From: Candidatus Latescibacterota bacterium
GTDB taxonomy: Bacteria; Latescibacterota; UBA2968
NCBI GenBank assembly: GCA_965198115.1
Contig: OZ240241.1
Span: 7,104,001 to 7,168,000 of the forward strand
Direction: 5' to 3'
DNA: 64,000 nt
The notes beneath the pieces are model-generated. The model was given only the letters and a program-made list of their open reading frames with translations. It did not search any database and was not told the DNA's origin. Both the position numbers and the translations under genes were made by a program. This document shows, in pieces, positions 1-25,107 of the stretch. How positions within the stretch are numbered: position 1 is the first letter of the stretch; each line of letters begins with the position of its first letter.

Positions 1-34
1 ACAGTAGCACCACATAAGGCGAACGTCTTGGCAT
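1..34 (-). CDS. 5' start of a gene running off the window (MPRRSPYVVLL...), probably continuing the biosynthetic operon
   Basis: ATG at 34 (minus strand) preceded by strong AGGAGGAG Shine-Dalgarno; only 11 codons visible. Confidence 0.45.
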   Translation of the reverse strand, partial: MPRRSPYVVLL

Positions 35-60
35 TGTTCTCCTCCTTTTGAAGGAGAACA
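35..60 (-). promoter_or_regulatory. Hairpin overlapping the ribosome-binding site of the gene starting at 34
   Basis: Perfect 9-bp inverted repeat TGTTCTCCT (35-43) / AGGAGAACA (52-60), 8-nt loop; on the minus strand the 3' arm is the SD immediately before ATG. Confidence 0.45.
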
Positions 61-77
61 TAAGCTACAAATAATGT

Positions 78-2613
78 TCAGGACATACCCCTCAGCCCGA
101 GCAGAAATCCATCGATCACGGGGTTGTCTCTGGTCAGCACGAGCCAGCGCTGATCGGACGCTCTACCGGAGCGGGCCTCTTGCGGAGCCCTTCCCCAGTG
201 GAGCGCGAGCCTACTCCCGCAGCCGCCGAAACGTGATCCGCCTCCACCCAATCGTTCCGAACTCGGGATGCCGTAACGCCGACGTTCGAATGGGTAAGTT
301 GGAAGGGAAACACGGCCGATTGTTTCGGGGCGCCGGACATCCAATCGACCTCTACTCCCGCCTCCCACGCCCGACCCAGGGTTTCCTGGTCGTGTTTGTG
401 TTCGCGTGCCCCTTCGGCCAGGGAGGAAAGAATGATCGGGTGGGTCGGCGCTGACGGATGCGTCGCGGCCAGGGCTCCTAGCGACCGGCCTACCCCAATC
501 TCCAGAAGGATCGGATCGTCGAGCGTCCAGACCGTGCGCAGGGGATCGACAGTCGTGTCGGCAGACTCGGGCATCGCGAGCCAACGGGTGGGATCATCTG
601 CAGCGAACTCGAAGGGGTCCGGGCCCCCGGAAAGACCGTGGATCCTGACGGAGGGGGGACGCTGACTGACTTCCGCAAGGAGTCCTGCCAGTGAACTCTC
701 TTCCTGCGGACACCCGGCGAGGGCCCGGCACGCATCTGCCAACGACACGACACCGGCCAAAGCCGCAGCGACGTGGAGACCCACGCCTCGCGAGACGAGC
801 ATTGAGGGCGAAACGCCGCGGTCGATCCACATACGGGCGAGTGAGTAGCCCAGGACAACTGTTGAAACATCGATGAGCGAGTCCGGGATCGGGGTTCGAT
901 CCTCGGGATCGGACGGATAGATTGTCGCCTCCAGATCGAGTCCCAGCGTGGCTTCAGCGCGTCAAACCCGTTCACAGCCTCCTCGCGGAACACCTTCTCA
1001 TAGTCATAAAGCTCTCGTCCCACATTCGCCCGCACCATCCTCTGAGCCGTCAGGAGAAAGACCACGTTTCGTGAGCGTGCGGGGTCGGGGTCCGATCCAG
1101 GGCGCCCGCTCAGACCGACGATGACTTCATCCGTATTCTGACCGACGACGGCTATCCGGTACGGGAACTGATGCCTTCCCACCTGCAGAGTGTGGGCGAC
1201 ATCCTCCAGGCGAACCCCGCTCCCGTCTGCGAGATAGTCACCCAGTGTCCGCGACATCGCTCGCAGTGCCGACGGGGTCCTGGCCGACATCGTGATCAGA
1301 TGCCATGTCCTTTCGGACGTCGGACGTGTGATCGACGGGGCCTCTTCCAGCACGACGTGAGCGTTCGTCCCACCGATGCCGAAAGAACTCACACAAGCAC
1401 GTCGGCAATCTGCCGACCCCCACCGCCGGAGCTCGCGGTTGACGAAAAAGGGGCTGCGGTCGAAGTCGATGTGCGGGTTCGGCTCGCGGAAATGGAGGCT
1501 TGCCGGAATCTGGCCCTTCTGCAGGCAGAGGATCGCTTTGATCATGCCGGCCGCGCCGGCCGCGGTATCCGTGTGACCGATGTTGGACTTGACGGACCCC
1601 AGCGCACAGAACCCGGTCCGGTCCGTCGTCCGGCGGAAGGCGCGCGTCAGGGCCTCGACCTCGATGGGGTCGCCGAGGGTCGTCCCTGTCCCGTGTGCTT
1701 CGACATATCCTATTGTGTCGGCACTGACACCGGCCATCTCAAGCGCATCGACGATCACGTCCGTCTGGCCCTGAGGCGACGGAGCGGAAAAAAGCCGTGC
1801 GGGTGTCACCATCGTTGTTCACAGCCGACCCACGGATGACGGCTTCGATCGCGTCGTTCGATGCCAGCGCATCTTCCAGCCGCTTCAAGGCGAAAACCCC
1901 GAGACCACTCGATGGCACTGTCCCTGCGGCGCCTGCATCGAAAGCACGGCAATGGCCATCCGGAGAAAGGATGCCCCCCTTGGAGAACCAGTAACCCGAG
2001 TCCTGGGGATGGGCGATGGTTATTGCACCGGCCAGAGCAAGATCACACTCGCCGCCGATCAGGCTGCGACACGCCGCGTGTACGGCGACCAGTGCGGTCG
2101 AGCACGCCGTCTGGACGGTGATGGCCGGCCCCCTGAGGCCGAGATGATACGCGACGCGTGTTGTCAGATAGTCTTTTTCGTTTCCCGTGACCACCTTGAA
2201 GGCGCCCACGTTGTCAGCTGCTTGAGACTCGCCTACGCGCCCCCTCCAGAACGCGCTCTCTCCTTGACCGGCATAGATCCGATCCGTTCCCGACAACGGG
2301 CTGGATCGTAGCCCGCCCGCTCCAGGACTTCCCAGGCGGCTTCGAGGAAGCAGCGCTGCTGAGGGTCGACCACGACCGCTTCGTTCGGGGCGTATCCGAA
2401 GAAATCCGCGTCAAACAGCTCGGTATCCTCCAGGACACCACGTGTAGGTACGTAGTGGGTGCCCGCCCGCGGCTTCGGTGACAGTTGCGGCCTTGTCGAA
2501 AAGACCTCCGTGCCCGATTCGAGGATTTCCCAGAACGTCGCCGTGTCGGAGGCCCGCGGATATCTGAGGGCGATGCCGACGACGGCAACTTCCAATCCCG
2601 TCCTGTCAGTCAC
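78..2613 (-). pseudogene. Type I PKS of hybrid NRPS-PKS type: ketosynthase plus degenerate acyltransferase, split by several frameshifts (possibly sequencing errors)
   Basis: Pieces in ORFs 2233-2799, 1739-2296, 490-1812, 134-832 and 78-584. KS motifs [24 protein letters not shown] (Cys), EAHGTGT and NIGHTDTAAG. AT motifs degenerate (VFLLTAQ for VFxFPGQ; SRGVG for GHSxG). GTG start at 2613 overlaps the NRPS stop. Confidence 0.85.
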
Positions 2614-5521
2614 TTTGTCCCCCCACGGAACGGCGATTCTCACCGGCGCCCTGCAACCGTGCCAACCCGGACTGGCGAACGGAAACACCGTCGCCACGGA
2701 CGATCTGGATTTCCGCTGTCTCCTTGAGCCAGTTCGCAAAGCTCCGCACCGTCGGCCGATCGAACATCGCCACGATTGGGAGCTCTCGATCAAGGACATC
2801 CTGCAGACGCGAGTGGAGCTGGAGAAGGCGAACGGAGGTGCCTCCGACGTCGAAGAAGCTGATGGTCACGCCCCCTGGGTCAGCAGGCAGGACGTCTCGC
2901 CAGGCATCCAGTATCTTCCGTTCCAGATCGTTGCGAGGAGGGTCCGCGGATTCGACTGGCGGGACTTCGAGACGATCCCGATCGATCTTCCCGTTCCGCG
3001 TTCGTGGCATTGCCTCGAGTGCAACCAGCCGACTCGGCCGCATGTAGGCAGGGAGGCGAGTCTCCAGGCGTCGCCGCAGCGAGTCAATCGATTCGGAATC
3101 GCTTTCGAGGACCACAAAGCCACAGAGCAGCTGCTGGCCGTCGCCTCGAACAACCATCACGGCGTCTCTGACCGCCGGATCACCCAGGAGCACGTGTTCA
3201 ATCCCTGTCAACTCCACCCGGAATCCAGATAGTTGCACTTGATCGTCCTGCCGCCCGCCGTACTCGATACGTCCGTCCGGCAACCACCGGGCGAGATCGC
3301 CGGTTCGATATAGGCGATCGCCCTGGACGAACGGGTTCCTCACGAATTGGGCCTCCGTGAGTGTTTCCTGGTTCAAATAGCCATCTGCAATGCCACTCCC
3401 CGATAGACATAGCTCGCCAAAGACGCCGATGGGTGTGAGCATGCTTCGAGGGCCCAGGATGTGGGCACGGGTGTTAGGAATGGGTCTTCCGATCGTGACT
3501 CTGGTCTCCGGATCGATCGTCCCGAGTGTGGCGCAGACCGTAGCCTCCGAGGGGCCGTATGCGTTGATCAGTCTCCGATTGCGCCCCCATTTATCTGCGA
3601 TCTCCGAAGTACAGGCTTCGCCAACGGACACGACCGTTTTCAAAGCAGGCAAACCGTCGGAAGAGAGTAGACGGAGCAGAGAGGGGGGCAAAGTCGCGAC
3701 CGAGACTCGGTCCCGTTCCAACCCGGCGAGGAAATCGTCCAGGCAGAGTGGGGGACCTTTGTCCGCAAGGCAGAGCGTCGCGCCGGCAGCGAGGGCACCG
3801 AAGATTTCCGAGACAGATGCATCGAACGCGAGAGAGGCGAATTGCAAGACGCGGCTGCCGGGCTCGATCGGATAGGCTCTTGCGAGCGAGAAGGCGAGGT
3901 TCTGAAGTCCTCTATGCCTGAGAACGACCCCCTTGGGCATGCCGGTTGAACCGGAGGTATAGACGACGTAGGCGGGGTCGTCGAGCGAAACAGGAACGGG
4001 CCCCAACTCGCAGGGATCTTCGGGATCCTCGCCATCCACACAGATTGCCTCCGCACCGTTCCCGACAAGGGCAGCCTGATCGATAGTCGTGACAACCGCC
4101 TTCACGCCGGCGTCTCCCAACACGAACCGGACGCGTTCCGCAGGGTCCGAGACATCGACAGGGACGTAGGCACATCCGGCTTTCAGGATGCCCAGAATCG
4201 CAACGACAGCCTCGATCGAGTTCTGTAGAAGCAGACCGACCCGATCTCCGGGCTCCACCCCGTAAAGCGACAGGCGTTTAGCCGCGTAACTCGACCGGAT
4301 CCTCATCTCCCGGTAAGTCAAGCTCTCACGCCCGCTTCGAACGGCCACACGTGCCGGGTGTGTGGTCGCCAGCCTCTCGATAATCGTGTGGACAGGCTCG
4401 GTCGTCCCCCACGAAAGGGAAGTATCGTTGAAGCGGTTGAGGAGCATCTTCTGCTCAACCTCGGACAGCATGGACAGGTCCGCTAGTGCTACCTGCGGGT
4501 CTTCCATCGCAGAGGCCAGCACGCGCTCGAAGTGGCTGCGGAATCGTTCGGCGGTTGTCTGGTGGAAGAGCGACACCGCATAACGGATTTCGTAGACTGT
4601 ATCGTCAGGGCTGAACACCAGCTCCAGGTCATAGCCGGCCGGGACCCCTTCAGAGCACGATCCACCCACCAGCGCCGATTGGAAAGCCGTGTCGAACCCG
4701 TGGGCACGACTCAAATCCTGCTGACATCCGATATCATCGAGAATACTGTCTAGAGGAAGGGCGTTGTGTTTGACCAGGTGGCATGTGTTTGCGACATCCT
4801 CCACAAACCGAAGGAATGACTTGTCGCCCTGGGCGAGGCAGCGGACGGGTAGGTCTTGGCCAGGTTCGCCAGGCACGGACCGCCACCCCACCACCAGATC
4901 CTCTTGTCCCGCGTATCGCGAGAGTACAACAGCATAGGCCGCCAAAACGAAGGCGCGAGGGTTCACCCCGTACCTCTCACAGACCGAACCCAAGCTGTTC
5001 GACCCCCTCGAATCGAGATGACCGGCGAGAGCCTGTTGTTCGAATGAGACGATCGGCGGTCGAGGGTTGTCGGCCGGAAGGTTCAGGACCGGAATCCCGT
5101 CAGGGAAGCATTTCTCCCAAAACACGTTCTCCGCGGTCGTCGAGACAGCCTTGAAAAGAGGTCGAACTCGATCTATCTCCGCGTGCTGGACATAGTCGGA
5201 CAGGACGGCAGCAGCCAGGGTACCGGCGGAGTATGAAATCTTGTTGGGTACCAGCGTCACCTCTAGCAAGAACGCCCGATCTTCACCGCACGATCTCAGT
5301 GAGACCTCGATCCGACTGTCTTTTGTGGAAGCTCCATCCCTTTCCGAGACGAAGCGGCAAGCCTGCTCTATTTCACCTTCTGGAGTACCCAGACGCTCGA
5401 CCACACGCGCAAAGGACTGTTCGATCGTGGCGCGATCGATCTCTCCCGTCAGCGCATATGCCCGGCGAATCGGCAGCACTGGGATACCGTCTCCGGTCCT
5501 CTGTTCCGGCGAGTTCGTCAT
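2606..5521 (-). CDS. NRPS module: degenerate/partial condensation domain, adenylation domain, PCP
   Basis: A-domain cores YTSGSTGMPKG, FDASV, NAYGPSE, LYRTGDL, NGKIDR; PCP FFDVGGTS; C-domain tail LSRYAGQEDLVVG but no HHxxxDG. Confidence 0.93.
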   Translation of the reverse strand: MTNSPEQRTGDGIPVLPIRRAYALTGEIDRATIEQSFARVVERLGTPEGEIEQACRFVSERDGASTKDSRIEVSLRSCGEDRAFLLEVTLVPNKISYSAGTLAAAVLSDYVQHAEIDRVRPLFKAVSTTAENVFWEKCFPDGIPVLNLPADNPRPPIVSFEQQALAGHLDSRGSNSLGSVCERYGVNPRAFVLAAYAVVLSRYAGQEDLVVGWRSVPGEPGQDLPVRCLAQGDKSFLRFVEDVANTCHLVKHNALPLDSILDDIGCQQDLSRAHGFDTAFQSALVGGSCSEGVPAGYDLELVFSPDDTVYEIRYAVSLFHQTTAERFRSHFERVLASAMEDPQVALADLSMLSEVEQKMLLNRFNDTSLSWGTTEPVHTIIERLATTHPARVAVRSGRESLTYREMRIRSSYAAKRLSLYGVEPGDRVGLLLQNSIEAVVAILGILKAGCAYVPVDVSDPAERVRFVLGDAGVKAVVTTIDQAALVGNGAEAICVDGEDPEDPCELGPVPVSLDDPAYVVYTSGSTGMPKGVVLRHRGLQNLAFSLARAYPIEPGSRVLQFASLAFDASVSEIFGALAAGATLCLADKGPPLCLDDFLAGLERDRVSVATLPPSLLRLLSSDGLPALKTVVSVGEACTSEIADKWGRNRRLINAYGPSEATVCATLGTIDPETRVTIGRPIPNTRAHILGPRSMLTPIGVFGELCLSGSGIADGYLNQETLTEAQFVRNPFVQGDRLYRTGDLARWLPDGRIEYGGRQDDQVQLSGFRVELTGIEHVLLGDPAVRDAVMVVRGDGQQLLCGFVVLESDSESIDSLRRRLETRLPAYMRPSRLVALEAMPRTRNGKIDRDRLEVPPVESADPPRNDLERKILDAWRDVLPADPGGVTISFFDVGGTSVRLLQLHSRLQDVLDRELPIVAMFDRPTVRSFANWLKETAEIQIVRGDGVSVRQSGLARLQGAGENRRSVGGQSD

Positions 5522-7972
5522 TCACGCATCGCCAGTCGTCGCGTCGACGATCTCGTCCTCGATCCGGCATGCTTCAGAGATGATCATGTCGTATAGACCG
5601 CGGACGAACTCAGGGCTCAGATTCTGAGATTCTCCTATCCGGGCGCACTTGGACTTCACGACTTCCACACGATTGGGCTGCATCATCGGGACGTCATTGG
5701 CGCGTTTGAATTGGGCCACGCCCCGGCATATGTCCAGACGTCTTGCAACCAGGCCGACGAGCTCTTCGTCGATGGAGTCCAACTCTTCACGAAATCCTTC
5801 GAGTTCATTCACGATGACCTCCAAACGTTCGGTATGACGATCCGACCCGACGGGGTCCGACCCTTCGATCTCGAACAACCCCTCCTGGAACCTGCCGTAT
5901 ACCGTCACGATAATCGCCCGGATTAGCGCTTCCACTTTGAGAAGCATTTCCTGGTATTCGGACTCGGGATCCGAGAGACTGACGATTGCGCCGCCACATC
6001 CCATCGTGATAAGGTCTCCGTGGAGGACCGCGGTCCGAATCACGATGCTCAAGTCGACGGCTCCGTCGAACCCGAGGTATCCGAGTGCCCCCGAGTATGG
6101 TCCTCTTGGCCTCCGCTCCAGCTGGTCCAGGATCTCCATGGTTCTGAGCTTTGGTGCACCTGTCATCGACCCTCCCGGAAATGCGGCCTTGATGCAGTCG
6201 ACCGGGTGGACATCATGCTTTAGCTGTCCGACAACAGTGCTGACCAGCTGATGGACCGTCTGATACGTTTCCACATCCATCATCTTGGGCACGTCCACAG
6301 ATCCGACCTCACACACACGGCCGAGGTCGTTGCGGAGGAGATCGACGATCATCAGGTTTTCAGCGCGATCTTTCGTGCTCATTCCAAGTGCGAGCCTCAG
6401 GTCCTCATCTTCTTGAGCATCCTGCCCGCGCCTGCTGGTTCCCTTGATCGGTTTGGACTCGACGCAACCGTCGCGGTCGATCTTCAGGAATCGCTCTGGG
6501 GATGAGCTGAGGACCGAATATTCACCGATCTTCAAGTAGCACGCATACGGAGCCGGATTGATACGACGCATAACCTGATAGAGTGCGAGGGGGTCCACGT
6601 CTACTGCGGTCGACACTTCGTTCGTCAGGCAGATTTCGTAGCTCTCTCCCCGATGGATTTCATCGAGGCAGTGCTTGATGTCGGCCAGGTATTCCTTCCG
6701 CGATCTGTTTAGCTTGAACCGGGTTTTCGCGGTCGGATCCGGCACTGCAGATGTCGGCGCCTTCTGGGGGAACGACCTGAGTTCTGCGGTTACCCAGTCG
6801 AACCATCGATTGGCGCAGGCCTCGTCGTCCTCGGCACCCATAGTGACCAGATACACACACGCGTCCTGGTGGTCGAACGCAAGGAAGCGGCCCGCAAGGA
6901 TGAAGGCGGCATCCGGCAGCCGGGACGTGTGGGCCTCTTCGGCCCCGCACACCTTCTTGAGTTCATACCCGAAATAGCCGACAAACCCTCCCGCAAAAGG
7001 AACGGGCAGATCCGGACACGCTACTCGTCGGGCATCCAGCTCATCCCGCAAAAAATCGAAGACATCCCTGTCTAGGTATCTGCGCTCGCCTCCAGCCTCC
7101 GTGACCACGAGTGTGTTTGTGTGTGCTCGATACTCCACTGACATTCCTTGATCGCCGGAATCGTCCCCCATAAAGGAGAAGCGTGAGAGTCCCTCCTCCA
7201 CCCGACTGCTGTCCAGCCAGAAGGACCGCGTGCTGCCGCCGAAGAGATTGGAAAACACCGCATGACCGTCGGGAAGGAAGTCAAGCTTCCTGAACCGAAC
7301 GCACGGCCGCCGGCCAGTTTTGGGCTTTCGAGCACGACCGTTCACGATTCGGAACGATGGATGTTCAACCGAGCCGACACGACGCGTCGAAGACTCGCGT
7401 TCGGTGATTTTCCGGAAGTTTCGTATCAGACGCGCACCGAACTCGGTCCCGATGGACTCCGGATGGAACTGGAGCCCCCAGAGCTTTCTGGCGCGGTGCC
7501 GAAGCCCCATCACGCATCCATCGGTGGTCCAGGCGATCCTTTCGAGGCAATCTGGTAGGCCCTCGGAAACGATCAGAGAGTGATACCTCACGGCAGAGAA
7601 CCCGGGTGGGATCCCTTCAAACAGGTCGGAGCCATCGTGGCAAATCGAACTATGCCGACCGTGCATGACCTCGGGTGCCTGGATCACCCGAGCGCCGTAG
7701 ACTTCACCGAGCCCTTGATGCCCGAGGCAAACACCCAATGTCGGACGGTTGACCTTTCGGAGAACTTCCGCGCACACCCCAAAGTCTCTGTGGTTCTTCG
7801 GTCTACCCGGGCCGGGCGAAATGACCACGTTTTCGAACGACAGCCGGGAGAGTGCTGGCCAGTCCAATGCGTTGTTCGTAACGACGAGGGGTTCCTCACC
7901 GTTCACTTCGGCAAGCACCTGAAAAAGGTTGTAAGTGAACGAGTCGTAGTTGTCGATCAGGAGCGTGCGCAT
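5522..7972 (-). CDS. pabB: Aminodeoxychorismate synthase (PabA+PabB) fused to a C-terminal chorismate-mutase-like domain (PapA-PapB-like fusion)
   Basis: IDNYDSFT, SPGPG, GVCLGHQ and QFHPES (GATase); SSSPERFL, PIKGT, ENLMIVDLLRNDL and GSMTGAPK (chorismate-binding); C-terminal LEGFREELDSIDEELVGLVARRL...K...PMMQPNR (AroQ-type mutase). ATG start at 7972. Confidence 0.92.
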   Translation of the reverse strand: MRTLLIDNYDSFTYNLFQVLAEVNGEEPLVVTNNALDWPALSRLSFENVVISPGPGRPKNHRDFGVCAEVLRKVNRPTLGVCLGHQGLGEVYGARVIQAPEVMHGRHSSICHDGSDLFEGIPPGFSAVRYHSLIVSEGLPDCLERIAWTTDGCVMGLRHRARKLWGLQFHPESIGTEFGARLIRNFRKITERESSTRRVGSVEHPSFRIVNGRARKPKTGRRPCVRFRKLDFLPDGHAVFSNLFGGSTRSFWLDSSRVEEGLSRFSFMGDDSGDQGMSVEYRAHTNTLVVTEAGGERRYLDRDVFDFLRDELDARRVACPDLPVPFAGGFVGYFGYELKKVCGAEEAHTSRLPDAAFILAGRFLAFDHQDACVYLVTMGAEDDEACANRWFDWVTAELRSFPQKAPTSAVPDPTAKTRFKLNRSRKEYLADIKHCLDEIHRGESYEICLTNEVSTAVDVDPLALYQVMRRINPAPYACYLKIGEYSVLSSSPERFLKIDRDGCVESKPIKGTSRRGQDAQEDEDLRLALGMSTKDRAENLMIVDLLRNDLGRVCEVGSVDVPKMMDVETYQTVHQLVSTVVGQLKHDVHPVDCIKAAFPGGSMTGAPKLRTMEILDQLERRPRGPYSGALGYLGFDGAVDLSIVIRTAVLHGDLITMGCGGAIVSLSDPESEYQEMLLKVEALIRAIIVTVYGRFQEGLFEIEGSDPVGSDRHTERLEVIVNELEGFREELDSIDEELVGLVARRLDICRGVAQFKRANDVPMMQPNRVEVVKSKCARIGESQNLSPEFVRGLYDMIISEACRIEDEIVDATTGDA

Positions 7973-8069
7973 GCATTCCTGTCTTGGCGCCTTCGGGTCG
8001 CGGAAGGACAAACTCGACTCTCAATGAGCTGGGTGAGACCGGCGGATTCCGCTCTCATCGGTGCTCGCC

Positions 8070-9995
8070 TCAGTCGTCATCAGCAGATCCCTTGCAAGCG
8101 TCAACGATCAGAGAGGAAACCGACTCTGCAAACGCCCAGGGATCCTCCACACGCTCCCCCTCGACTTGGACGGCCTGCTCGTAGAGCAGCCTGCAACAGT
8201 TCGCCACCCGGGGATCGTCCGGGGCTCGATCGAACAGCGCCTGGACAGCTTGAACGACCGCGTGTTCCAGATTGATTTCCAGGATCTTCCGCGCCCGGAA
8301 CACGGACTGGTTCGCCTCCCGCATCAGGCGTTCCATGTTCAGGCTGTGACCGATCTCTGCGCTCGCCAGGCAAACCGGACTCTGTGTGAGGCGGGTGGAC
8401 GCACGAACGTCGTCCATTTTTTCTCCCAAGCAGGTTTTCATGTATTCCAAGAGGCCTTCCTCGGTGTCCGGCTCGTCGGGAGACTCGTCTTGGTCGTCTT
8501 TCGAGAGGTCGATACTGTTCACACGGGAGATCGACTTCAAGGGCTTCCCTTGATACTCCGTCAGGCTTTGGGTCAGGAACTCGTCGACTTTGTCTACGAA
8601 TAACAGAACCTCGTAGCCTTTCTCCCTTACACCCTCCAGCTGGGGAGACTTCTCGATCGCCTCCCTGCTGGGTCCGGTGGCGAAAAGGATCTCTTCCTGA
8701 TCCTCCGGCATACGTGCCACATACTCTGAGAGCGTCGTGGACTCTGTGCCTGCGCTCAACACCCCGAATACAAGCAGATCCTGAAGCTTCTCGACGTTAT
8801 CGGGATCGCTGAATATCCCCCCCTTGATCGACTTCCCGAACTCCGCCCAAAGCGCCTCATACAGGCCGCGGTCGTTCTTCAAAATCGAACGGAAGGCGCT
8901 CAGAATCTTTCGCTCCGCATATCCTACAATCCGCTTCAACTGTCGTCCGTGTTGAAGTGTCTCTCGGGAAATGTTCAACGGGAGGTCCGGAGAGTCGATG
9001 ACGCCTTGCATAAACGACAGATACTCGGGGAAGCCCTGACAGGACTCCATCACCAGAACCCGGTTCGAGAAAAGCCTGACACCGCTCTCCGTTGCGCTCG
9101 TATACAGGTCATAGGGCGCATGTGACGGGATGAAAAGCAAGCCCGACACCACGACCGTCCCTTCCCCCTTAAAGTGAATCGTCTCCGCGGGCTCGTAGTA
9201 GTCGTTGAAGCTGTCCCGGTAGAACGAGGCGTAATCTTCGTCGGTCAGACCGGAGCTGTCTTCCTCCCAAAGGGGCTTGATCGAGTTGAGCGTCTTCTGT
9301 TCGATGACCGAGAATTCCGCTTCGTCATGGTGACTCCCCTCGGAGGCGGGCTTTTGGGTCTCGAAATCCATTCGAATCGGATACTGGACAAAGTTGCTGT
9401 AGTGCTGTACGTGCTTCTGGATGACGAATTGATCCAGGAAGGTGTCGAAAGATTCGTCTTCCGTGTTCTCTCTGAGTCGAAGGACGATCCGGGTCCCACG
9501 GTCGCACATGGGTATTTCGCTGATCTCGAACGTACCTTCGCCCTCCGATTCCCAGCATACGCCCAGCTCGGCGTGCGGATGTTTCGTGGACACGGACAGT
9601 TGGTCTGCAACCATAAACGCGGAGTAGAACCCGACCCCGAACTGCCCGATCAGAGTCTCATCGGAACCGCCCTCGCGAAGAGACTCCACAAACGCCAGAG
9701 ATCCCGACTTCGCGATCGTTCCGAGGTTCTCCATCACGTCGTCGTACGTCATCCCGATCCCGTTGTCAGAAATCGTCAGTGTGCGGGCCTCCCGGTCGAT
9801 CTCGATGCGGATCGAGAGATCGGTGTCTTGCCCCAGAATGTCCGGTTCCGTCAGCGCCAGGATCCTAAGTCTGTCCAGTGCGTCCGATGCGTTTGCAATC
9901 AGCTCGCGCATAAAAATCTCCTTCTGCGTGTAGAGCGAGTTGACCACAAGCTTGAGCAGCTGTTTGACTTCGGCCTGGAAATCCATCGTTTTCAT
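8070..9995 (-). CDS. htpG: Hsp90-family chaperone HtpG
   Basis: FQAEVKQLL, EIFMRELIANASDA, DNGIGM, NLGTIAKSG, IGQFGVGFYSAF, LPLNISRETLQ; 641 aa. Confidence 0.96.
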   Translation of the reverse strand: MKTMDFQAEVKQLLKLVVNSLYTQKEIFMRELIANASDALDRLRILALTEPDILGQDTDLSIRIEIDREARTLTISDNGIGMTYDDVMENLGTIAKSGSLAFVESLREGGSDETLIGQFGVGFYSAFMVADQLSVSTKHPHAELGVCWESEGEGTFEISEIPMCDRGTRIVLRLRENTEDESFDTFLDQFVIQKHVQHYSNFVQYPIRMDFETQKPASEGSHHDEAEFSVIEQKTLNSIKPLWEEDSSGLTDEDYASFYRDSFNDYYEPAETIHFKGEGTVVVSGLLFIPSHAPYDLYTSATESGVRLFSNRVLVMESCQGFPEYLSFMQGVIDSPDLPLNISRETLQHGRQLKRIVGYAERKILSAFRSILKNDRGLYEALWAEFGKSIKGGIFSDPDNVEKLQDLLVFGVLSAGTESTTLSEYVARMPEDQEEILFATGPSREAIEKSPQLEGVREKGYEVLLFVDKVDEFLTQSLTEYQGKPLKSISRVNSIDLSKDDQDESPDEPDTEEGLLEYMKTCLGEKMDDVRASTRLTQSPVCLASAEIGHSLNMERLMREANQSVFRARKILEINLEHAVVQAVQALFDRAPDDPRVANCCRLLYEQAVQVEGERVEDPWAFAESVSSLIVDACKGSADDD

Positions 9996-10015
9996 AGAGT
10001 TGTCTCCTTCTCCAG

Positions 10016-10681
10016 CTAAGACTCTCGATCAGAACGGCTTCGATGGGGGTGTCTGGCCAACCCCCAAAAACGGATGCCGCTCAATGGCTCCACATCCTCC
10101 GTCTCTACCACAAAACCGTGACGGGAGTAGAAGCTGATGTTTTGGGACTGGTCTGTCTCCAGGTAACAGGGGATGCAGTCCCGGTCGGACCGGTGAAGCA
10201 CCGGCTCGATCAACGCACTCCCGATACCACGCGACTGCGAACTTGGATCGACGCCGAGGATCATCAGATACCAGTGCGGATCCAGAACCTTGCGCTCCCT
10301 CACCGATTGCAGATAGCCGTGGTATCCGAACATCCGATCTGTCGTCTCCGCTCCGAGATCCGATGAAAGACCGGACAGCCCGGACACCTCCCAATACTCC
10401 GGATTGGGCAGATACGACGGGGGCAACCAAAGAGCCACACCGAGTATCTTGCCTGTGGTGGTCCACGCCTCACCTGACAAGAGTATGTATGCCGTAAATG
10501 CTCGGTATGCAGGGATCAGACGCGATTCCCGATCCTCGTCATCTGGCACCAGATACCGACACACCGGAGATGCCGTGAACGACCGGGCCAGGACCGCCGA
10601 AGCACCGTCGATCTGCGACGACAACAGCGGAGTCGGGGAAGCGGAGAGATCGTGCGCTGCTGAATGTATCCGCTCAGTCAC
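10016..10681 (-). CDS. GNAT-family N-acetyltransferase (resembles puromycin-acetyltransferase-like group)
   Basis: HWYLMILGVDPSSQSRGIGSAL acetyl-CoA motif, CYLET, N..FYSRHGF; GTG start at 10681 overlaps the PPTase stop. Confidence 0.88.
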   Translation of the reverse strand: MTERIHSAAHDLSASPTPLLSSQIDGASAVLARSFTASPVCRYLVPDDEDRESRLIPAYRAFTAYILLSGEAWTTTGKILGVALWLPPSYLPNPEYWEVSGLSGLSSDLGAETTDRMFGYHGYLQSVRERKVLDPHWYLMILGVDPSSQSRGIGSALIEPVLHRSDRDCIPCYLETDQSQNISFYSRHGFVVETEDVEPLSGIRFWGLARHPHRSRSDRES

Positions 10682-11471
10682 AAGCTCCCGATTCCTCCCC
10701 GTGCGACAGCCGTTTCCCCATCCAGGCGATCGCATCGGGCGTCCAGTCCCAGAAACGGATGTTCGCGATCGGGCTGTCTGTGACGAGGGCAGCCTTTATC
10801 CCCTGTCCGACGTCAATCTCTCGGAAGTACCAGCCTTCTGCTTCGCCGTGCCCCTCTACACTCGTGGATCGTTCAGACGAGATGGGCACCTCAAAAGACG
10901 AAAGAGGGTGATAGAGCCCTTTACCGATCGCCTTGACATAGGCCTCCTTCAACGTCCACATGCGGAAGAACAGATCATAGCGCCCCTCAGCTGCGTGTTC
11001 CCTGAACCGTTGAGATTCTCCCAGGGCGAAGTAGTGCTCGACAATGGAGCGGACGTCTACGCGGGTATCGACCGTCTCCACGTCGATCCCCAAACGAGTG
11101 CGACGGCTGAAGCCGATGAGGGAGGTCTCACCCGACTGAGTGGCGTTAAACCGCAAATCGCCGTAGTCACCTTGATTCCGGATTTCCGGCTTTCCGAATC
11201 CCCCTGTTTCGAACGCCACGGATTCCGGCCCCAGGCCTGTATAGATCGAAATCGTACACTTCAGAAACGCCCTTGAAAGACGTGACCGTCGACGATGTCG
11301 GTCGAACCGGTACCGCATCGCTCTTGCGATCTCCTCATCTGACAGAATCGAGATGAGGTCGCTCGACGCAGAATCGGGTAGTTGCAGCGGTGCTCTCCAA
11401 ACGTGTACTTCGCCGGGCGACAAGCCCGGGGCCATACGTGGCACCGGGCGCCACGCGTTCGATTTATCCAC
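10674..11471 (-). CDS. Sfp-type 4'-phosphopantetheinyl transferase
   Basis: LSDEEIARA, GKP, FNATQS, LGIDVE, WTLKEAYVKAIGKGL. Confidence 0.93.
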   Translation of the reverse strand: MDKSNAWRPVPRMAPGLSPGEVHVWRAPLQLPDSASSDLISILSDEEIARAMRYRFDRHRRRSRLSRAFLKCTISIYTGLGPESVAFETGGFGKPEIRNQGDYGDLRFNATQSGETSLIGFSRRTRLGIDVETVDTRVDVRSIVEHYFALGESQRFREHAAEGRYDLFFRMWTLKEAYVKAIGKGLYHPLSSFEVPISSERSTSVEGHGEAEGWYFREIDVGQGIKAALVTDSPIANIRFWDWTPDAIAWMGKRLSHGEESGACD

Positions 11472-11492
11472 TTTGCGCCCGTTTTCAGGAGA

Positions 11493-12749
11493 TCACTCCC
11501 GGATGGCTTCGAGAGGCCGATCCCGGACCCCAAGGAATCGACGAAAGTCTGTGTTCACCGACATGCCTGCCGCAAAGATGGCGGCACTCGCGCCACACAC
11601 CGGGTAGATCAATCCGACGTCGTTGTCGACCCAGTCTCCCATAACCCCCGTGACCGCAATGGCGACCGGCGACAAAGCGTTTGATGCTGTCCCCATGAGG
11701 CCGAAGATCCGCCCCCTGATGGCTGACGGGATCGAACGCTGCAACTCGGTGGTCAGGGTGAGGCTGACCATCCCGCCCATCGCCCCCAGAACGGTCAGAC
11801 CGCACAGAGCGGGCAAGGCTCCGCCAACGGTCACTAGAAGACCCATCCCCGTGGCTTGCAGAAACAGCAGGAGAAGGACGACGTTCGCCCTTGCCCCTTC
11901 CGGGACGAACTTCGCACCGGCCACCACATAGCCCACTGTCGCACCCAGACCGTTCGCCGTAACCAAGAATCCATACCACTCGGCCCCCAGTCCCAGGAAG
12001 TCCTCGACGTAAAATGGCAGAAGCATCACAATCGGCCAGACGAAGAAGTTCAGGGAAAGGGCGACGACGATGACTGCTTTCAGACATTTGTCCTCGCGGA
12101 TCATCCTGACACCCTCAAGGCCTTCTCGCCAGAAAACCCGTAGGCGGTCGGACCAACCCTCGAGGCCGTCAGGGAGGGTCTGCTTCGTGCGGATCATCAT
12201 TGCACTCAAGGCAGAGTAGACGTAGCTGATGGCGTTAAGTGCGAAGAGAGTCGTTGCGCCGAGAACACTGAACACGACGCCACCAACGCTCTGACCGGCT
12301 GACTTCGCAACGAACGAAGAGCCCTGATTAAACCCATTGGCTTTTTCGAGACTTTCGTCGGAGACCAGATCCGGCACGATTGCGGCCGTCGCCGCCCCGT
12401 AGAATGCGCCCACGACTGAAATGATGAGTGAGGTAGCGAGCCCCGCGACAATGACCACGTTCCCGGAATCCCCCTGCATGGAAACGATGCCGACGAGCAT
12501 CAGTACGGCAAGAGCTTTGGCCAGATCACCTATCACGATCGTTCGCTTTCGCGAATATCGATCGGCGACGATCCCGCCCAGTGGGCCCAGGATTAGTGAG
12601 GGTAAAGCCGACGACATCATGAACAGCCCCACGATCGTACTGGATTCCGTCGTGTGCTTCGCCCAGAGCACCAGGGCAATCGTGAAAGCATTCGACCCAA
12701 GCCGGCTAATGAATCGACCCTGGAGCAACAGCAGGAAATCACGACTCAT
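11493..12749 (-). CDS. MFS transporter (DHA3/macrolide-efflux-like)
   Basis: About 12 hydrophobic segments; GGIVADRYSRK motif A; IPSAIRGRIFG. Confidence 0.9.
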   Translation of the reverse strand: MSRDFLLLLQGRFISRLGSNAFTIALVLWAKHTTESSTIVGLFMMSSALPSLILGPLGGIVADRYSRKRTIVIGDLAKALAVLMLVGIVSMQGDSGNVVIVAGLATSLIISVVGAFYGAATAAIVPDLVSDESLEKANGFNQGSSFVAKSAGQSVGGVVFSVLGATTLFALNAISYVYSALSAMMIRTKQTLPDGLEGWSDRLRVFWREGLEGVRMIREDKCLKAVIVVALSLNFFVWPIVMLLPFYVEDFLGLGAEWYGFLVTANGLGATVGYVVAGAKFVPEGARANVVLLLLFLQATGMGLLVTVGGALPALCGLTVLGAMGGMVSLTLTTELQRSIPSAIRGRIFGLMGTASNALSPVAIAVTGVMGDWVDNDVGLIYPVCGASAAIFAAGMSVNTDFRRFLGVRDRPLEAIRE

Positions 12750-13615
12750 TGGATCTCGCGACGTGGATCATAAGTCGCCAGCCATGCCAAGACTTCCCTG
12801 CTGTTCTTGTCCACATCCTCGATGTAGCTATCGCTGACACCCGACTTTTCCAAAAACGCATCGAACTCAGTCTTCAGCGCGTCTCTGTCGGACCGGATGC
12901 AGGCCACAACACAACCAAGAAGTGTCCGCTGGACCTCCTGCCCCTTTGGCGAATCGCCCAAACCTCGAATGAGTGTTGCGGACATGCCCGACTCCTGTGT
13001 CACTGTCCGCCAGAAACCCAGGTTGAACAGCTTAAAATTGGCGGTGGCGAACTCGTCAAGAACCGATGGGGCGACGGAGAGCGACCGATAGAGCATTGAA
13101 ACCGAACGGAATACGGTGTGTGGAACCAACTGCAGAAAGCACATGAGCTCGTCGTGGCGGGACAAGCTCTCGAGCATTCGGATCTTCATGCCCGTGTAAA
13201 GACGCCTCGCGAACGCAACGGCTTGTTCGGAGTTGGACCCAATGGGAATAAGTAGGACGTTTTCGTAGTCCCAGGATTGTGGTTGGCAAAGCGGGTTCGA
13301 CGAGCAGACACTCGCACCTGACTCATCCAGATCTGTCAGGTAACCCTCGAGCGGTGCTTTTACGGAGCTGTTTTCCACGATGATCAGAGAACTGGTACGT
13401 TCGTGCCTCAGGACTTCCGCGTAGACGGCGTCAAGAGCTTCTTCCGGGAAGACGCTTATGTAAAGGGCGTCATATACCTCGAGAAGGTCGTTCAACGAGG
13501 CCGAGTTATGACACTCGGGGTCGCTGATCATAATTGAGTCCCCTTGATGCTCGAGGAGACGGCGAACTACGGATCCAATAGCCCCACTCCCCCCCACGAT
13601 CCCTACTCTTGCCAT
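12746..13615 (-). CDS. Prephenate-dehydrogenase-like oxidoreductase (PapC/CmlC-like by context)
   Basis: N-terminal GIVGGSGAIG Rossmann motif, ENSSVK, HDELMCFLQLVPH (TyrA-type HD..M...Q..PH); co-operonic with the ADC synthase-mutase fusion. Confidence 0.75.
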   Translation of the reverse strand: MARVGIVGGSGAIGSVVRRLLEHQGDSIMISDPECHNSASLNDLLEVYDALYISVFPEEALDAVYAEVLRHERTSSLIIVENSSVKAPLEGYLTDLDESGASVCSSNPLCQPQSWDYENVLLIPIGSNSEQAVAFARRLYTGMKIRMLESLSRHDELMCFLQLVPHTVFRSVSMLYRSLSVAPSVLDEFATANFKLFNLGFWRTVTQESGMSATLIRGLGDSPKGQEVQRTLLGCVVACIRSDRDALKTEFDAFLEKSGVSDSYIEDVDKNSREVLAWLATYDPRREIQ

Positions 13616-13878
13616 TCGCAAAACCCCCAACACACGCCCGGGTCAAATTCGAATCACGTGCTGTCCGTCGTCTCGCTCGACAAACTTGAGCTATGACTCG
13701 GCTCGTTGCAACGTTTGCATGTTATCAAAGCCTGCCGTTTGCCCAAACACACCCAATCTAGTTTCCAGTAAGTGCCTTACTATTCGCTCGCGGCGTTGCG
13801 TTGATCTGAAATCTGCTTATTCTAATTTCTGACAGGGGCATTCCACGCCAGCGTCCTTTCGGATGTTCGGCGAGGTAT

Positions 13879-15258
13879 GGAGGTCGAGTCAAGAGGTGTG
13901 TAAATAGATCAGGCGGCCAGCTTCTTCCCGGAGTCGATTGTGGTCATAGTTTGGTTGTGCTGTGCATAAACAACGTGTAACAGATGGGGTGCATTGAGTC
14001 GCCGGAAGCGTTTCTCGGCGACCATCAGTGTTCGCCAGATGAGAGCGCTTGCCGAGACGACCTTCTTGTAGCGTTTGGCGGCGTTGGTTCGTAACCGCAC
14101 GGATGCAAAGGGGCTCTCGACGATGTTGGTCGTTCTCAGGTGGCGCCAGTGTTCTTCTGGGAAATCGAAGAAGGTGAGCATCCTATCCCAATCCCGTTCG
14201 AGTGTTGCCACCGCCTTCGGGAACTCGTTGCGATATCGTGCGACGAACTGCTTGCGCAGCTTCTCCGCATCCTGACGCGTGCTGGCATAGGGAATCTGGA
14301 CGAGCAGTGCACGAGCTTGAGGCTGCTGACGTTTGTGGATCTGGTCCGGGACGTTGAGAATCTTGTGGTTCCAGCACCGCTGCTGACGGGTGTGCGGCCA
14401 GACCTGATCGACGGCAGACCAGATGCCCATATTGCCATCGGCCGCCATCAGAATGGGGTGATCCAAGCCGCGATCCCGTAGGTCTCTAAGGACAGCCAGC
14501 CAGGACTCGGTCGACTCGCGATACCCAGGCACCAGGCCCAGAACCTCTTTGCGGCCGTCACTCATGGCGCCGATCACGACAAGCAGACACGCCTTATCTT
14601 TCTCAAGTCCGGCTTTGACGTAGATCCCATCGGCCCAGGCATACACGAGCTCACGATCGTCCAGGCGTCGTTCCTGCCAGGTCTGGTAATCAACCTCCCA
14701 TTGACCGCGGAGGCGAGCAATCGACGAGGGGGAGAGCGGAGCCCCATCACCGAGAAGCCCTCGCAGGGCCAACTCGAAGTCGCCCTGAGACAGACCGTGG
14801 AGATAGAGCTCCGGGAGCAGTTCCCCCACCTCTCTCGTGCGCCGAGCGAACAACGGCAGAATCCTGCTCTCGAAGCGCTCCTCCAAACCGCGAACACGGG
14901 GCCGCTTGATCTGGATCGTGCCGCAAGAGGTCGACAATCGCCGCAGCTTCCCATAGCCGTTGCGATAACCGGATCCTGCATCTACGGCTTCTTTGCGCTC
15001 ATACCACCCGCGTCCGAGGAACTGGGTCACTTCCTCCTCAACGATGGACTGAATGCGAACCTCGATTTCCTTACGCAACCACCCCTCAAGGGTTTCCCAC
15101 GTCGGCATGGACAACGAGGGGGACTTCGACTTATGTTTTCCCACGGCGATCCTCCTTCCCACCGGGCCTGTGAACCCGGTATTTCGTGGATATTGTTATC
15201 TCACGGGAAGTGTAGGGTCGCCTTTTCTATTTTTCCACACCTATTGATTGTAGCTCTC
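13879..15258 (-). mobile_element. IS256-family insertion sequence
   Basis: Imperfect terminal inverted repeats (TCAAGAGGTGTGTAAA at about 13889-13904 vs TCAATAGGTGTGGAAA on the minus strand at about 15232-15247) around an intact transposase; truncates the Type III mod gene. Confidence 0.85.
13909..15162 (-). CDS. IS256-family transposase
   Basis: YRNGY, LYLHGLS, WADGIY, QRCWNHK, LRTTNIVES; 417 aa. Confidence 0.93.
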   Translation of the reverse strand: MGRRIAVGKHKSKSPSLSMPTWETLEGWLRKEIEVRIQSIVEEEVTQFLGRGWYERKEAVDAGSGYRNGYGKLRRLSTSCGTIQIKRPRVRGLEERFESRILPLFARRTREVGELLPELYLHGLSQGDFELALRGLLGDGAPLSPSSIARLRGQWEVDYQTWQERRLDDRELVYAWADGIYVKAGLEKDKACLLVVIGAMSDGRKEVLGLVPGYRESTESWLAVLRDLRDRGLDHPILMAADGNMGIWSAVDQVWPHTRQQRCWNHKILNVPDQIHKRQQPQARALLVQIPYASTRQDAEKLRKQFVARYRNEFPKAVATLERDWDRMLTFFDFPEEHWRHLRTTNIVESPFASVRLRTNAAKRYKKVVSASALIWRTLMVAEKRFRRLNAPHLLHVVYAQHNQTMTTIDSGKKLAA

Positions 15259-16021
15259 TCCAAAAATCTCATCCATCAATGCCCGAACGCGATGGACGTT
15301 TTCATCACCAATCTGCATGAAGATAGAAGCAGTGTCGGCAAGGAGATCGCGGGCAACTGTTAGGCGGTCTCGAAGATACGTGAGGTAGCTGTGGATACCA
15401 TAACGCCAAGTATCGCGGAAGGCTTTGACCTGCTCCGGTTCTCGGGTGATGTGGTCAACCCGACCGTCTTTCACATCCCGACTAGTGGTCGACCACTGAA
15501 AGTTGCTGTTGAACTTGATCCCGTACGGTGGGTCAACGAAGATACACTGTACCTTTCCCCGCAACCCTTCACGTTCCGCAAGGCTTGCCATAACCTGTAA
15601 CGAATCACCCAGGATCATGCGGTTGGACCAGTTCTGGTCGTGCTGGTAGAACTCGGTTCTGTCAACTCCCTTGGGAATACCGTTGAAGTCGGCGAAGAGG
15701 TTGGCCTGTGCTCCGGGGGGTCTCCGCTTGTGTTTCTTCCGTCTGCCGAAGGAGATCGTCGATCAACACCTTCGGATGAACCTTTTCCTGGATGTAGAGC
15801 GGCGGGGCGTGGACGACGAGGTCGCTCCAGTCCTGCTCATCCTTCCCACGCCAGACGAACTGGGGGTCGAGATCGGTGTTCCGTGGATACTTCACCGGCC
15901 GTGGCTCGGTATCGTCTGGTCGGAGCACGGACTGATGCTCGGCGGAGGGGATGTTCCTCCGCTTGGCCTCGTCGTGCGTGATCGTTTCGACGGTCTTGCG
16001 AGTGCCGCGCCTCTTGGCCAT
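15259..16021 (-). pseudogene. Type III R-M adenine methyltransferase (Mod), frameshifted and 3'-truncated by IS256
   Basis: ORFs 15662-16021 and 15241-15618: [49 protein letters not shown]. Confidence 0.88.
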
Positions 16022-16024
16022 AGC

Positions 16025-18712
16025 CTAGCTGTCCTCAGTCACCGAATGTGCGGTCGCGGTGTCGATTATCTTGTCGAACTTGTCTCCGACCTTCGCCGCA
16101 AAGTCGGTCTCGATCTCGTAGACCTCGGTGAACTCGGCGAAGGCCCAGTGTCCATACGTCTTGAGATTATTCACGCCGTGTACCCAGTAGGTATCCATCG
16201 TGGACTTCTTTCCCTTCGCGTCCTCGCGCCGGTAGCCCTTGATCTCGACGATCAGGCGCAGCAGGTCGTCCGAGCCGTGGCCGTCGTCCACCAAGACGAT
16301 GAAGTCAGGCAGATACTTTCGAACATCGGAGCCGTAGCGATACGGCACTTCGAGACCCAAGTTGTGGTTCTTCGTGTAGGCCACGACCTTCGGATGCGAC
16401 TCGGCGACACGGCAGAACTCGGCTTCCCAGTCGCTGTCGAGCACCACCCAGTTGACGTGGTTCTTGGGCGCTGGACCACTGGTGTCCCAGCGGTCCGCGC
16501 GGGACGTGTTGAATCTGACGTGGGCCGTGGAGCCGGTGGGATTGTAGGGGTCGAGCAGGGCTTTGATGGGGCGGTGGTCTTCCAGCGCGTTGGTGATGCC
16601 GGCGGTGATGCGGGTGCACGCCATATCGGCCAGCTCCTGATACATCAGCTGGGCAGGATAAGTGCCGCCCTTGCAGACGAGACAGGTGTCGAGCCACTGC
16701 TTCGTGATGCGTTTGAGCTGGCCGAACAGATAGAGCTTCGGCTCTTCCCCCGGATCGCGCCATTTCGTGTAGAGCAGGCGCTGGGTGACGTGGAACAGCA
16801 GCGTGGACGGCCGCATGTCTCCTAGATGCTCCAGGTTCAGGTCCACGCCTTCGCCGATGATGCCCGCATTCCGTGTAATGGACGGGCCAACCAGATCGGG
16901 GCTGAGTTCGAGAATGGAATCGGCACTGAAGGTGGCCGTGAGGCGCTCCTCGGGCAGTTCGACGCGGTAGCCTTCGACGCGAGGGAACTGGATTTCGAGG
17001 GCGTCTCGCTCCGGGCGCATGGCTTTGACCTGAACCGTCTCACGCGGCGGCTGCGGCGGGGCGATAACGGGCTTGGCCGTGAAGTCGAAGGGAATGCCGA
17101 AGATGTCTGCGTATTCGACGTTGAAGAGATTTTCGTCATTGAGGTCGTAGGATTGGCGGCGCAGCGCACGTCCGATAACCTGTTCGCAGAGGAGCTGGGT
17201 GCCAAAAGCGCGGATGCCGAGGACGTGGGTGACGGTGTTCGCATCCCAGCCTTCCGTCAGCATGGACACGGAGACGACACAGCGGATGGAGCCGCCGAGT
17301 TGTCCGTGCTTGCCCACGGTGTTCGTGACCTCACGCAGCAACTCCTGATCGCTGATGTTCTCCCCGGCACGGGCATCCCCGGTGCGTTCGATGATCTCGC
17401 GGCGGAAACGTGCAATCTCGTCGGCGGCCATGCCACGAAACTTGTCGTCGAGGGCGTCGCCGGCTTCTAGCTGCTCACTGTCGATCAGCAACGTGTTCGG
17501 ACGAGCGAGCGGATTCCCCGTGGTTTCGTCGAAATTGCGGAAGAGTGCCAGGCGACCGTTTTCCAGTGCGGTGGTCCCGTCGGCGTTCTTGCGTTGAAAA
17601 CCGGAGATGAAATCATAGACGAGCTTCGAGATGGCGGTGTTCTGGCAGACGATGATGAAGCAGGGTGGCACACGAATGCCCCCTGTCTTCCACAGCTTGA
17701 AGGTCTTCTCGTAATGCCCGTAGAGCGCCTCAAGAGCGGTTTGCAGTCGGGGAGGCAGTTTGAGGGGATCAAGCTCTCCGCCCTGGCCGCGCCCCTTCTT
17801 GGGCATCTCCTTGCGGATATTCTCCCAGAGGTTGCGATAAACGGGCATTTCGTCGCCGGGGATGTTCTGAGCCACCGGGACGCGCGGCAGTTTCACGATG
17901 CCGCACTCGATGGCGTCCATCAGCGAGAAGTCGCTCATCGTCCACGGGAAGAGCGTTCCCTCGGCATAGCCGGATCCGCGCAGGAAGAAGGGCGTGGCGG
18001 ACAGATCGATCACACGAGAGCGGCCGAGCTTACGATTCACGGCTTCGAGACCCGAGATCCAGAGGCGCCGCTTCGTTGTTCTTTTCGGCCAATTTTTTGT
18101 CATCGCCCTTCAGATGCGCATCGTCCGGCTCCGGTGGCTTCTCGCGGTAGCAATGGTGCGCCTCGTCGTTGAGCACGAGGATGTTCTTGATACCCATCAG
18201 ATCAGGCATGACACGCTGGAGCATCTGCCCTTCAGTTTCAGTGGTGTTCAGCTCGTCGCCGGTGCGGCCCTTGAGCAACGCGCGTCCGCCGGCAGACAGC
18301 TCGATGCGCTCGCGTAACTTGAAGGCGTGGTAGTTGGTGATGACGATCTTGGCGCGGTTCACGTCGTCGAGCAGGTCGTGCGGCACGAGTTCGCGGCTGG
18401 CGTAGTAGCTGTCCGGGTCGTTCGGCTGGAGGACGCGGAGCCGATTCTTGATGGTCAGGCCTGGAGCGACGACCAGGAAGCCTCGGGTGAAGTGTTTGCT
18501 GGCGGGATGGCGGACCGCGTTGACCGTTTGCCAGGCGATCAGCATGGCCATGACAGTTGTCTTGCCAGCCCCGGTGGCCAGTTTCAGCGCAAGGCGCATC
18601 AATTCGGGATTGGCGTCCTTGTTGGCTCTGGCCAAGTGGTCGAGCAATCGTTTGCCGCCCTTGAAGTGCGGCGCGACCTCGGTCAGCCAAATCGCGCTCT
18701 CGACGGCTTCTA
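16025..18712 (-). pseudogene. Type III restriction endonuclease/helicase (Res), 5'-truncated, one frameshift near 18060
   Basis: LATGAGKT, LNDEAHHCY, DLSATPF, MLTEGWD, EQVIGRALRR, C-terminal YLPDF..VEIKG nuclease; ORFs 18030-18647 and 16025-18103. Confidence 0.88.
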
Positions 18713-20188: not shown

Positions 20189-20390
20189 TCAGCTCTTCAA
20201 CTTCCGCATCAGGAAAAACGGTAATGGACAGTGTGAAATCAGACATCAATAACTCGGTAGTCATCGTTGAGCCTCGGTATGTTATGTTTTTAGCCATCTC
20301 GTTCCTCCCGAGCCCGAAATGACCGGGAGGCTTCTATAGGATTGTATATAATCCCCCCCCCAAGAGTCAAATTCATGAAGGAGAGTCCGC

Positions 20391-20738: not shown

Positions 20739-20761
20739 AACGGTGCTGGTAGTGGCAAAGA

Positions 20762-22654: not shown

Positions 22655-22664
22655 ACAGTAGGAA

Positions 22665-25069: not shown

Positions 25070-25107
25070 AGCTCCAATATAGTAGTTTTCCGTCCGGAAA
25101 ATCCATC

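Follow-up and report, generated by a model that had tools for sequence, protein, structure and literature searches.

We analysed a window of 64,000 nucleotides of a Candidatus Latescibacterota genome (C1:7104001-7168000; the host genome is a single contig of 8.43 Mb) and examined a run of eight co-directional minus-strand genes as a candidate pathway to p-aminophenylalanine. The run lies between two insertion sequence (IS) elements, of the IS256 and IS630 types, and comprises genes for a TyrA-family dehydrogenase, a major facilitator superfamily (MFS) transporter, a phosphopantetheinyl transferase (PPTase), a GNAT acetyltransferase, HtpG, a fusion of PabA and PabB to a chorismate mutase, a nonribosomal peptide synthetase (NRPS) and a polyketide synthase (PKS) pseudogene (Table 1). 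Stop and start codons overlap at the dehydrogenase/MFS, PPTase/GNAT and NRPS/PKS boundaries, and the fusion gene abuts the NRPS gene; the single run with overlapping codons described in the initial annotation of the sequence was thus recovered with all eight genes placed. The further gene that it had suspected off the edge proved to be the IS630 transposase (DDE_3), which is outside the pathway. Beyond this element lies host backbone that a same-genus genome shares at 81% identity, and the host gene immediately to the left (L003:4086-4848, about -1914 to -1152) occurs in 12 of 12 relatives, its first ~13 codons being gone here at the IS630. The sequence preceding that gene in relative G001 has no match in the host genome. 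Continuation of the cluster to the left of position 1, or its relocation elsewhere, was ruled out by this backbone and by genome-wide searches. Neither a sigma-70-like promoter nor a terminator was found in 13560-13960.

Table 1. Features of the gene run and its boundaries, in window coordinates (aa, amino acids).
Feature	Position	Strand	Supporting match or remark
TyrA-family dehydrogenase, 289 aa, no ACT	12746..13615	-	NCBIfam PRK08655 2.9e-8
MFS transporter (H+ antiporter, EntS/Mef-like), predicted exporter	11493..12749	-	PF07690, PF05977; TIGR00900 2e-51
Sfp/HetI-like phosphopantetheinyl transferase	10674..11435 (alternative GTG start 11471)	-	PF01648; NF042922 2.6e-43
GNAT acetyltransferase, puromycin N-acetyltransferase-like	10016..10681	-	PDB 7k09, E 8e-19
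HtpG (Hsp90)	8070..9995	-	NF003555 3.6e-201
PabA-PabB-chorismate-mutase-type-II fusion, 816 aa	5522..7972	-	PF00117, PF04715, PF00425, PF01817; TIGR00553 above cut-off
NRPS: vestigial condensation (C), adenylation (A) and thiolation (T) domains	2606..5521	-	domain matches; gapless A alignment to GrsA 1amu
PKS pseudogene: ketosynthase (KS), degenerate acyltransferase (AT), post-AT LPTYPF linker	89..2613, GTG start 2613	-	domain matches and read support
Truncated IS630 end	1..88, element extends to about -1151	-	without terminal ~30 bases
IS256 (Mutator-family) element, upstream boundary of run	13880..15256	-	PF00872; 7 copies at least 99% identical, 140 at least 70%

The dehydrogenase carries the central evidence. 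In ordinary TyrA, the catalytic His contacts the 4-OH group of the substrate and its replacement in H197A cripples the enzyme; Ser179, His248-Asp249 and Arg297/Gln301 have also been named (PMC2954222). A protein without H197 is described as very likely to have PapC specificity, a marker that is based on few related sequences (PMC1173090). The window dehydrogenase has Asn107 in the column of this His (E. coli H197), while S84 and H154-D155 align to Ser179 and His248-Asp249 in an alignment to H. influenzae TyrA, and R203/Q207 would, from family conservation, be the Arg/Gln pair. We collected 160 homologs and aligned 159, among which the column holds His in 151, a gap in 7 and Asn in a single protein (P0365) that groups with PapC-like proteins. 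Where TyrA-like open reading frames (ORFs) occur in 86 pabAB/mutase loci, 36 of 39 have Asn at this column and 3 have a gap. Across 58 family members, nineteen columns reach a conservation of at least 90%; the window protein keeps 18 of them and only H107 has changed, which is again the sole change among the 7 such columns across all 159 homologs. The rough chance that one random loss would fall on this site and produce Asn is 1/19 x 1/7 = 0.008, a figure calculated post hoc with the data already seen.

The protein also ends before an ACT domain: its 289 residues compare with 362-370 in TyrA-ACT homologs, full-length close homologs extend into an ACT region of ~70 residues, and its stop codon lies within the overlap with the MFS gene. 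Pfam gave no match at E<=0.01 (PDH_C alone appeared at 0.015). An AlphaFold model had a mean pLDDT of 71, with a confident N-domain and a weak C-domain, and its top Foldseek matches were TyrA structures, the first being 2pv7. The TyrA fold with an NAD-binding N-domain and a dimerisation domain, the absence of an H197 equivalent and the linkage to 4-amino-4-deoxychorismate (ADC) synthase and mutase, whose fusion gene lies 4.8 kb away in the same run, all agree with the PapC functional class. Membership of the housekeeping TyrA-ACT class, by comparison, fails on both the catalytic His and the C-terminal ACT domain. The protein is likely to be a 4-amino-4-deoxyprephenate dehydrogenase of independent origin, as judged from its sequence.

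The nearest relatives of this dehydrogenase are His-type TyrA-ACT proteins (38-41% identity). In a tree of 59 rows it nests with them at an SH-aLRT support of 99, and the 16 PapC-like rows group apart on a branch with support of 100; it thus falls outside the PapC sequence clade, defined by xNPMFxP proteins beside papB-type mutases. Monophyly with PapC was rejected by an approximately unbiased (AU) test on a 24-row tree (p=1.28e-6), with a long-branch warning. Within one Chloroflexota order, 8 of 167 genomes have one such His-type relative each, and all eight proteins carry His. Neither pabAB nor NRPS genes were seen in six of their neighbourhoods, judged by ORF starts only, and one relative adjoins a prephenate dehydratase. 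A genome-contig search yielded no relatives of the dehydrogenase among 48 candidates, and nothing in five Chloroflexota genomes matched its alignment. The simplest reading is that a PapC function would have arisen convergently by the His-to-Asn change plus loss of ACT.

Several points weigh against this reading. Both trees were built by a 'quick' method, the 59 rows being a subset of 200 and the careful search unfinished. The branch leading to the window protein is long (1.2-1.7), and it differs at 21 of 41 columns conserved in the PapC-like set. The N-type reference proteins were called PapC from gene context, with no characterised PapC or CmlC included. The Asn variant is a singleton in its lineage, searches having found no second copy. 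Finally, His-to-Asn is a single-base change, and since loss of the His cripples ordinary TyrA, decay is possible. Within the homolog set, we also observed a divergent TyrA subfamily (P0253-P0300) with an STHP[LM] motif and a well-supported branch of its own, whose closest members have no Pfam PDH_N among their precomputed domains.

We then considered the synthase-mutase fusion. It passes the pabB cut-off and retains the glutaminase C/H/E residues and the lysine of PIKGT, which we take to be diagnostic of ADC synthase; host TrpE has PIAGT at this site. The mutase domain carries the motif PMMQPxRV that is common to pabAB-linked mutases. A mutase-domain profile search of metagenome loci provided the best 80 of 164, with identities of 39-54%, and the addition of L009 gave 81 loci, many of them under 3 kb. 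Genes for pabAB were nearby in 62 of the 81 and an NRPS A-T match in 13, while KS, htpG, PPTase, GNAT and MFS genes were near the mutase in none of these often short loci. Across the pabAB/mutase loci, 39 had a TyrA-like neighbour. The same three-part fusion was found in 3 of 119 other top homologs and in one of the best 80 mutase loci. Searching with the fusion itself returned mostly generic pabAB/trpE loci; among 80 there was one KS match and none with htpG, PPTase, GNAT or MFS. No intact sister cluster emerged from the searches with the dehydrogenase, the fusion and the mutase profile. The synthase portion has the glutaminase domain, chorismate-binding domains and PIKGT lysine of the PapA/CmlB ADC synthases, and the mutase portion, like PapB/CmlD, is of the AroQ type, in a clade with pabAB and N-type dehydrogenases. 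Together they are predicted to form a PapA/PapB pairing of ADC synthase and ADC mutase. One point against the overall reading is that 13 of 215 conserved columns are lost from the pabAB portion; no listed homolog has lost as many, although the comparison was made mostly with close cyanobacterial kin.

The metagenome loci held further arrangements. In L138, L140, L161, L163-L165, L009, L120-L123 and L146, pabAB and a papB-type mutase adjoin NRPS genes, and several of these NRPS-linked loci have N-type dehydrogenases, making them candidate p-aminophenylalanine peptide clusters. L115 and L122 have pabAB and a papB-type mutase, no TyrA-like neighbour by profile, and then a methyltransferase-like ORF and a shared ORF; another route from aminodeoxyprephenate is possible there.

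The pocket of the NRPS A domain reads DASTVVAVCK where GrsA has DAWTIAAICK, in the gapless alignment to 1amu. Pocket-code strings of this kind are assigned to Tyr; a literature search for the strings gave no match. In GrsA, the W239S substitution promotes para-substituted Phe, with Tyr preferred in competition (PMC10467612). A W239S-type pocket fits p-aminophenylalanine as the predicted substrate, and the initial proposal of a p-aminophenylalanine precursor pathway was supported in three respects: the PapC marker, a mutase within the pabAB-linked clade and this pocket. That W239S also favours Tyr is a point on the other side, and with it goes an alternative in which the genes merely supply tyrosine and p-aminobenzoic acid (pABA) and the A domain loads Tyr, as the Tyr preference of the W239S variant and the TyrA identity of the nearest dehydrogenase relatives would suggest. 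We regard this as improbable: the His needed for a 4-OH substrate is absent, there is no ADC lyase in the run, and the mutase is fused to an ADC synthase and belongs with pabAB-linked mutases. Elsewhere, moreover, the host has a tyrA and a chorismate mutase of its own, along with two pabB-like genes of the PMKGT type, so that the dehydrogenase, mutase and synthase copies of the island are spare.

In the NRPS, the A-domain core motifs and the T-domain serine are present, and a PPTase is encoded in the run. HHxxxDG is missing from the C domain, which also carries in-frame deletions; because this domain is vestigial, the amine of the starter would remain free. The best A-T homologs are ~40% identical. 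Overall, 6.3% of conserved NRPS columns are lost, a proportion that is as high in 26 of 118 homologs; two near-invariant residues of the A8 region are altered (K406Q and E416G in query numbering), which speaks against an intact enzyme. The GNAT protein is covered near full length by its match to 7k09 (residues 16-216). Since this best match is a puromycin N-acetyltransferase, acetylation of the amine of an aromatic amino acid fits, and the predicted role is amine acetylation for self-protection or tailoring. The htpG gene is the sole copy in the host genome. HtpG is reported to be needed elsewhere for the maintenance of NRPS megaenzymes (bioRxiv 10.1101/2025.07.01.662645), and it is predicted to act here as a chaperone of the NRPS.

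The PKS gene is not intact. Its KS and AT are split over five reading-frame pieces by four frameshifts near 2280, 1790, 947 and 332, one of which sits within a run of six T, and the gene stops at position 89 after the linker, directly against the IS630. Logan contigs from runs X1 and X2 (one sample) span 59-7955 and 7930-13906 without a gap or a single differing letter, and the shifts are therefore present in the reads; X1/X2 is possibly the source sample, so that the match is read support and does not represent an independent strain. X3, a second sample of the same study, matches 764-1051 and spans one PKS shift. Assembly error as the source of the shifts was rejected on the strength of these matches. 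The KS keeps its catalytic C, H and H motifs. In the AT, SRGVG stands in place of the GHSLG of PKS ATs, and there is an in-frame gap of ~78 residues, which may reflect a loss older than the frameshifts and would imply a trans-acting AT. Beyond the AT linker, the remaining tail matched no domain significantly, leaving the impression of a ketoreductase (KR) start unsupported.

The boundary between PKS and IS630 is a deletion junction, because this IS630 copy lacks a conserved end of ~30 bases that is present in 64 of the 64 other copies reaching this point. Parts that could complete the line were sought across the genome. Thioesterase PF00975 had 0 genome-wide matches (no separate search was made for a terminal reductase family), and there was no condensation domain other than that of the NRPS. 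The only other KS match adjoins an acyl carrier protein (ACP) and a KR-family short-chain dehydrogenase/reductase (SDR) gene, with no further type I KS. Two other ACPs are found in the genome but no spare PKS-type ACP, and the truncated PKS contains none. The suggestion that the missing thioesterase and tailoring parts lie outside the window accordingly found no support in the genome or in the host backbone beyond the IS630; for the missing aminotransferase, by contrast, borrowing from the host is plausible, with a precedent in dnacin biosynthesis (PMC7570522). The proposed hand-off from NRPS to KS can apply to the ancestral cluster only, as the PKS is now frameshifted, degenerate in its AT and deleted after it, and no release domain was found in the genome. 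A hybrid NRPS-PKS product is probably no longer made. The intact KS motifs and the shift in the six-T run would allow a line that still works through slippage or frameshifting with partners encoded elsewhere, yet this would require all four shifts to be bypassed, of which three precede the AT, in a gene cut at 89 and in a genome where no thioesterase, other type I KS or spare PKS-type ACP was found, and we consider such a line very improbable indeed.

The four frameshifts are confined to the 2.5 kb of the PKS, and the remaining 10.8 kb of coding DNA has none (p about 0.001; p 0.01 against the pabAB-mutase plus NRPS alone), which suggests that the remaining genes are still conserved, or that their use was lost more recently than that of the PKS. 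This distribution bears on the more serious alternative, namely that the whole island is decaying: an ancestral His-type TyrA perhaps accepted the amino substrate, N107 is a neutral inactivation, and nothing is made, with htpG at most being kept. The dead PKS, the broken type III restriction genes next to the run, an IS-rich genome (the 66 IS630 and 140 IS256-type copies described below), the single base change needed for N107, the A8 changes of the NRPS with the 13 PabAB losses, and the lack of an upstream sigma-70-like promoter are all as decay would have it. We nevertheless judge it unlikely, given that the sole column lost out of 19 in the dehydrogenase is the diagnostic one, changed to the PapC residue (rough chance as above), and that the seven other genes are free of frameshifts, including 5.4 kb downstream of htpG.

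The origin of the island was addressed by comparison with 40 genomes that share the genus, family or order of the host. The dehydrogenase was found in none of the 40 and htpG in none at E<=1e-20; the fusion had separate trpE/pabB-like matches only, none spanning it. Because these three genes are missing from the relatives, recent horizontal gain of the island is likely. The surrounding genome has undergone a genome-wide IS burst, IS630 being present in 66 near-identical copies and IS256-type elements in 140 (>=70% identity), and its size is 8.4 Mb as against about 5.6 Mb in a same-genus genome. Next to the run, 15241-18647 holds a type III restriction-modification remnant, in which the IS256 cuts off a methylase fragment and the res gene is spread over several frames, and 19500-38800 is a degraded mobile region with transposase-like ORFs and primase- and helicase-like fragments (from translations only).

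Taking the evidence together, we think it probable that the run is a horizontally acquired island whose intact genes make p-aminophenylalanine by way of an independently evolved Asn dehydrogenase, and whose PKS is frameshifted and truncated. In the proposed pathway, the fusion would convert chorismate to 4-amino-4-deoxychorismate and then to 4-amino-4-deoxyprephenate, the Asn107 dehydrogenase, freed of its ACT regulatory domain, would yield p-aminophenylpyruvate, and a host aminotransferase would complete p-aminophenylalanine. The W239S-type A domain would load this amino acid onto the PPTase-primed T domain with its amine free, and the NRPS would be stabilised by HtpG. Protective acetylation of an amine would fall to the puromycin-acetyltransferase-like GNAT and export of the product to the MFS protein. 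In the ancestral cluster the KS may have extended p-aminophenylalanine using a trans-acting AT. An IS630-bounded deletion has since removed the PKS past the AT linker, leaving the frameshifted remnant, and what is made today is probably no more than p-aminophenylalanine or an N-acetyl form of it. A wider proposal, over which we are evenly divided, is that PapC evolved twice (a housekeeping TyrA-ACT from a Chloroflexota-type lineage would have been recruited, lost its ACT, exchanged His for Asn and been joined with a fused PapA-PapB), that the cluster represents an Hsp90-carrying, p-aminophenylalanine-primed NRPS-PKS class not described before, and that since the loss of the PKS the precursor arm is still selected and its product, p-aminophenylalanine or the N-acetyl form, exported.

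If a second PapC origin is correct, its 40%-identical His-type relatives offer a clean pair for the question of a one-residue 4-hydroxy/4-amino switch, and mining based on similarity to PapC would overlook some routes to p-aminophenylalanine. For the microbial production of aromatic amines, the dehydrogenase and the PapA-PapB fusion are candidate parts. The cluster as it stands cannot give a hybrid product, but it can serve as bait for intact aminophenylalanine-primed NRPS-PKS systems with an in-cluster Hsp90. With the line dead, the hybrid product is not predictable; the proposed single-residue convergence is directly testable. A literature search of titles and abstract openings, of limited coverage, returned no PapA-PapB fusion, convergent PapC or aminophenylalanine-to-KS line; similar architectures may be present in supplementary cluster surveys (e.g. 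Figure S9 of PMC7570522).

Comparison with known systems places the island close to PapABC and CmlBDC of pristinamycin I and chloramphenicol biosynthesis and to DinVEF of dnacin B1, which have the same ADC synthase, ADC mutase and TyrA-family dehydrogenase without H197 (PMC1173090, PMC7570522); in the dnacin pathway the aminotransferase is borrowed from the host, as proposed here (PMC7570522). The island differs from all three in that synthase and mutase are fused, the dehydrogenase falls outside the PapC-like clade, and an NRPS-to-KS order is combined with PPTase, GNAT and htpG genes, a set matched by none of the 81 mutase loci, many of which are short. For albicidin, colibactin, arthrofactin and pyoverdine, we take htpG to lie outside the main cluster. 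These are HtpG-dependent megaenzyme systems (bioRxiv 10.1101/2025.07.01.662645), and here htpG is inside the run. ObaDEF of obafluorin likewise has fused p-aminophenylpyruvate genes within an NRPS cluster (PMC5490192), but ObaF joins mutase to dehydrogenase, whereas the mutase is joined to the synthase here, and the run has no N-oxygenase or transaldolase. The GNAT has puromycin N-acetyltransferase as its best solved match, in a run with no nucleoside genes. Chloroflexota His-type TyrA-ACT proteins remain the closest sequences to the window dehydrogenase, sharing 18 of its 19 conserved columns, but they have His and an ACT domain where it has Asn and ends before ACT. Taken as a whole, the truncated hybrid island likely combines a convergent PapC with a rare PapA-PapB fusion, and is predicted to work in the manner of PapABC, CmlBDC and DinVEF.

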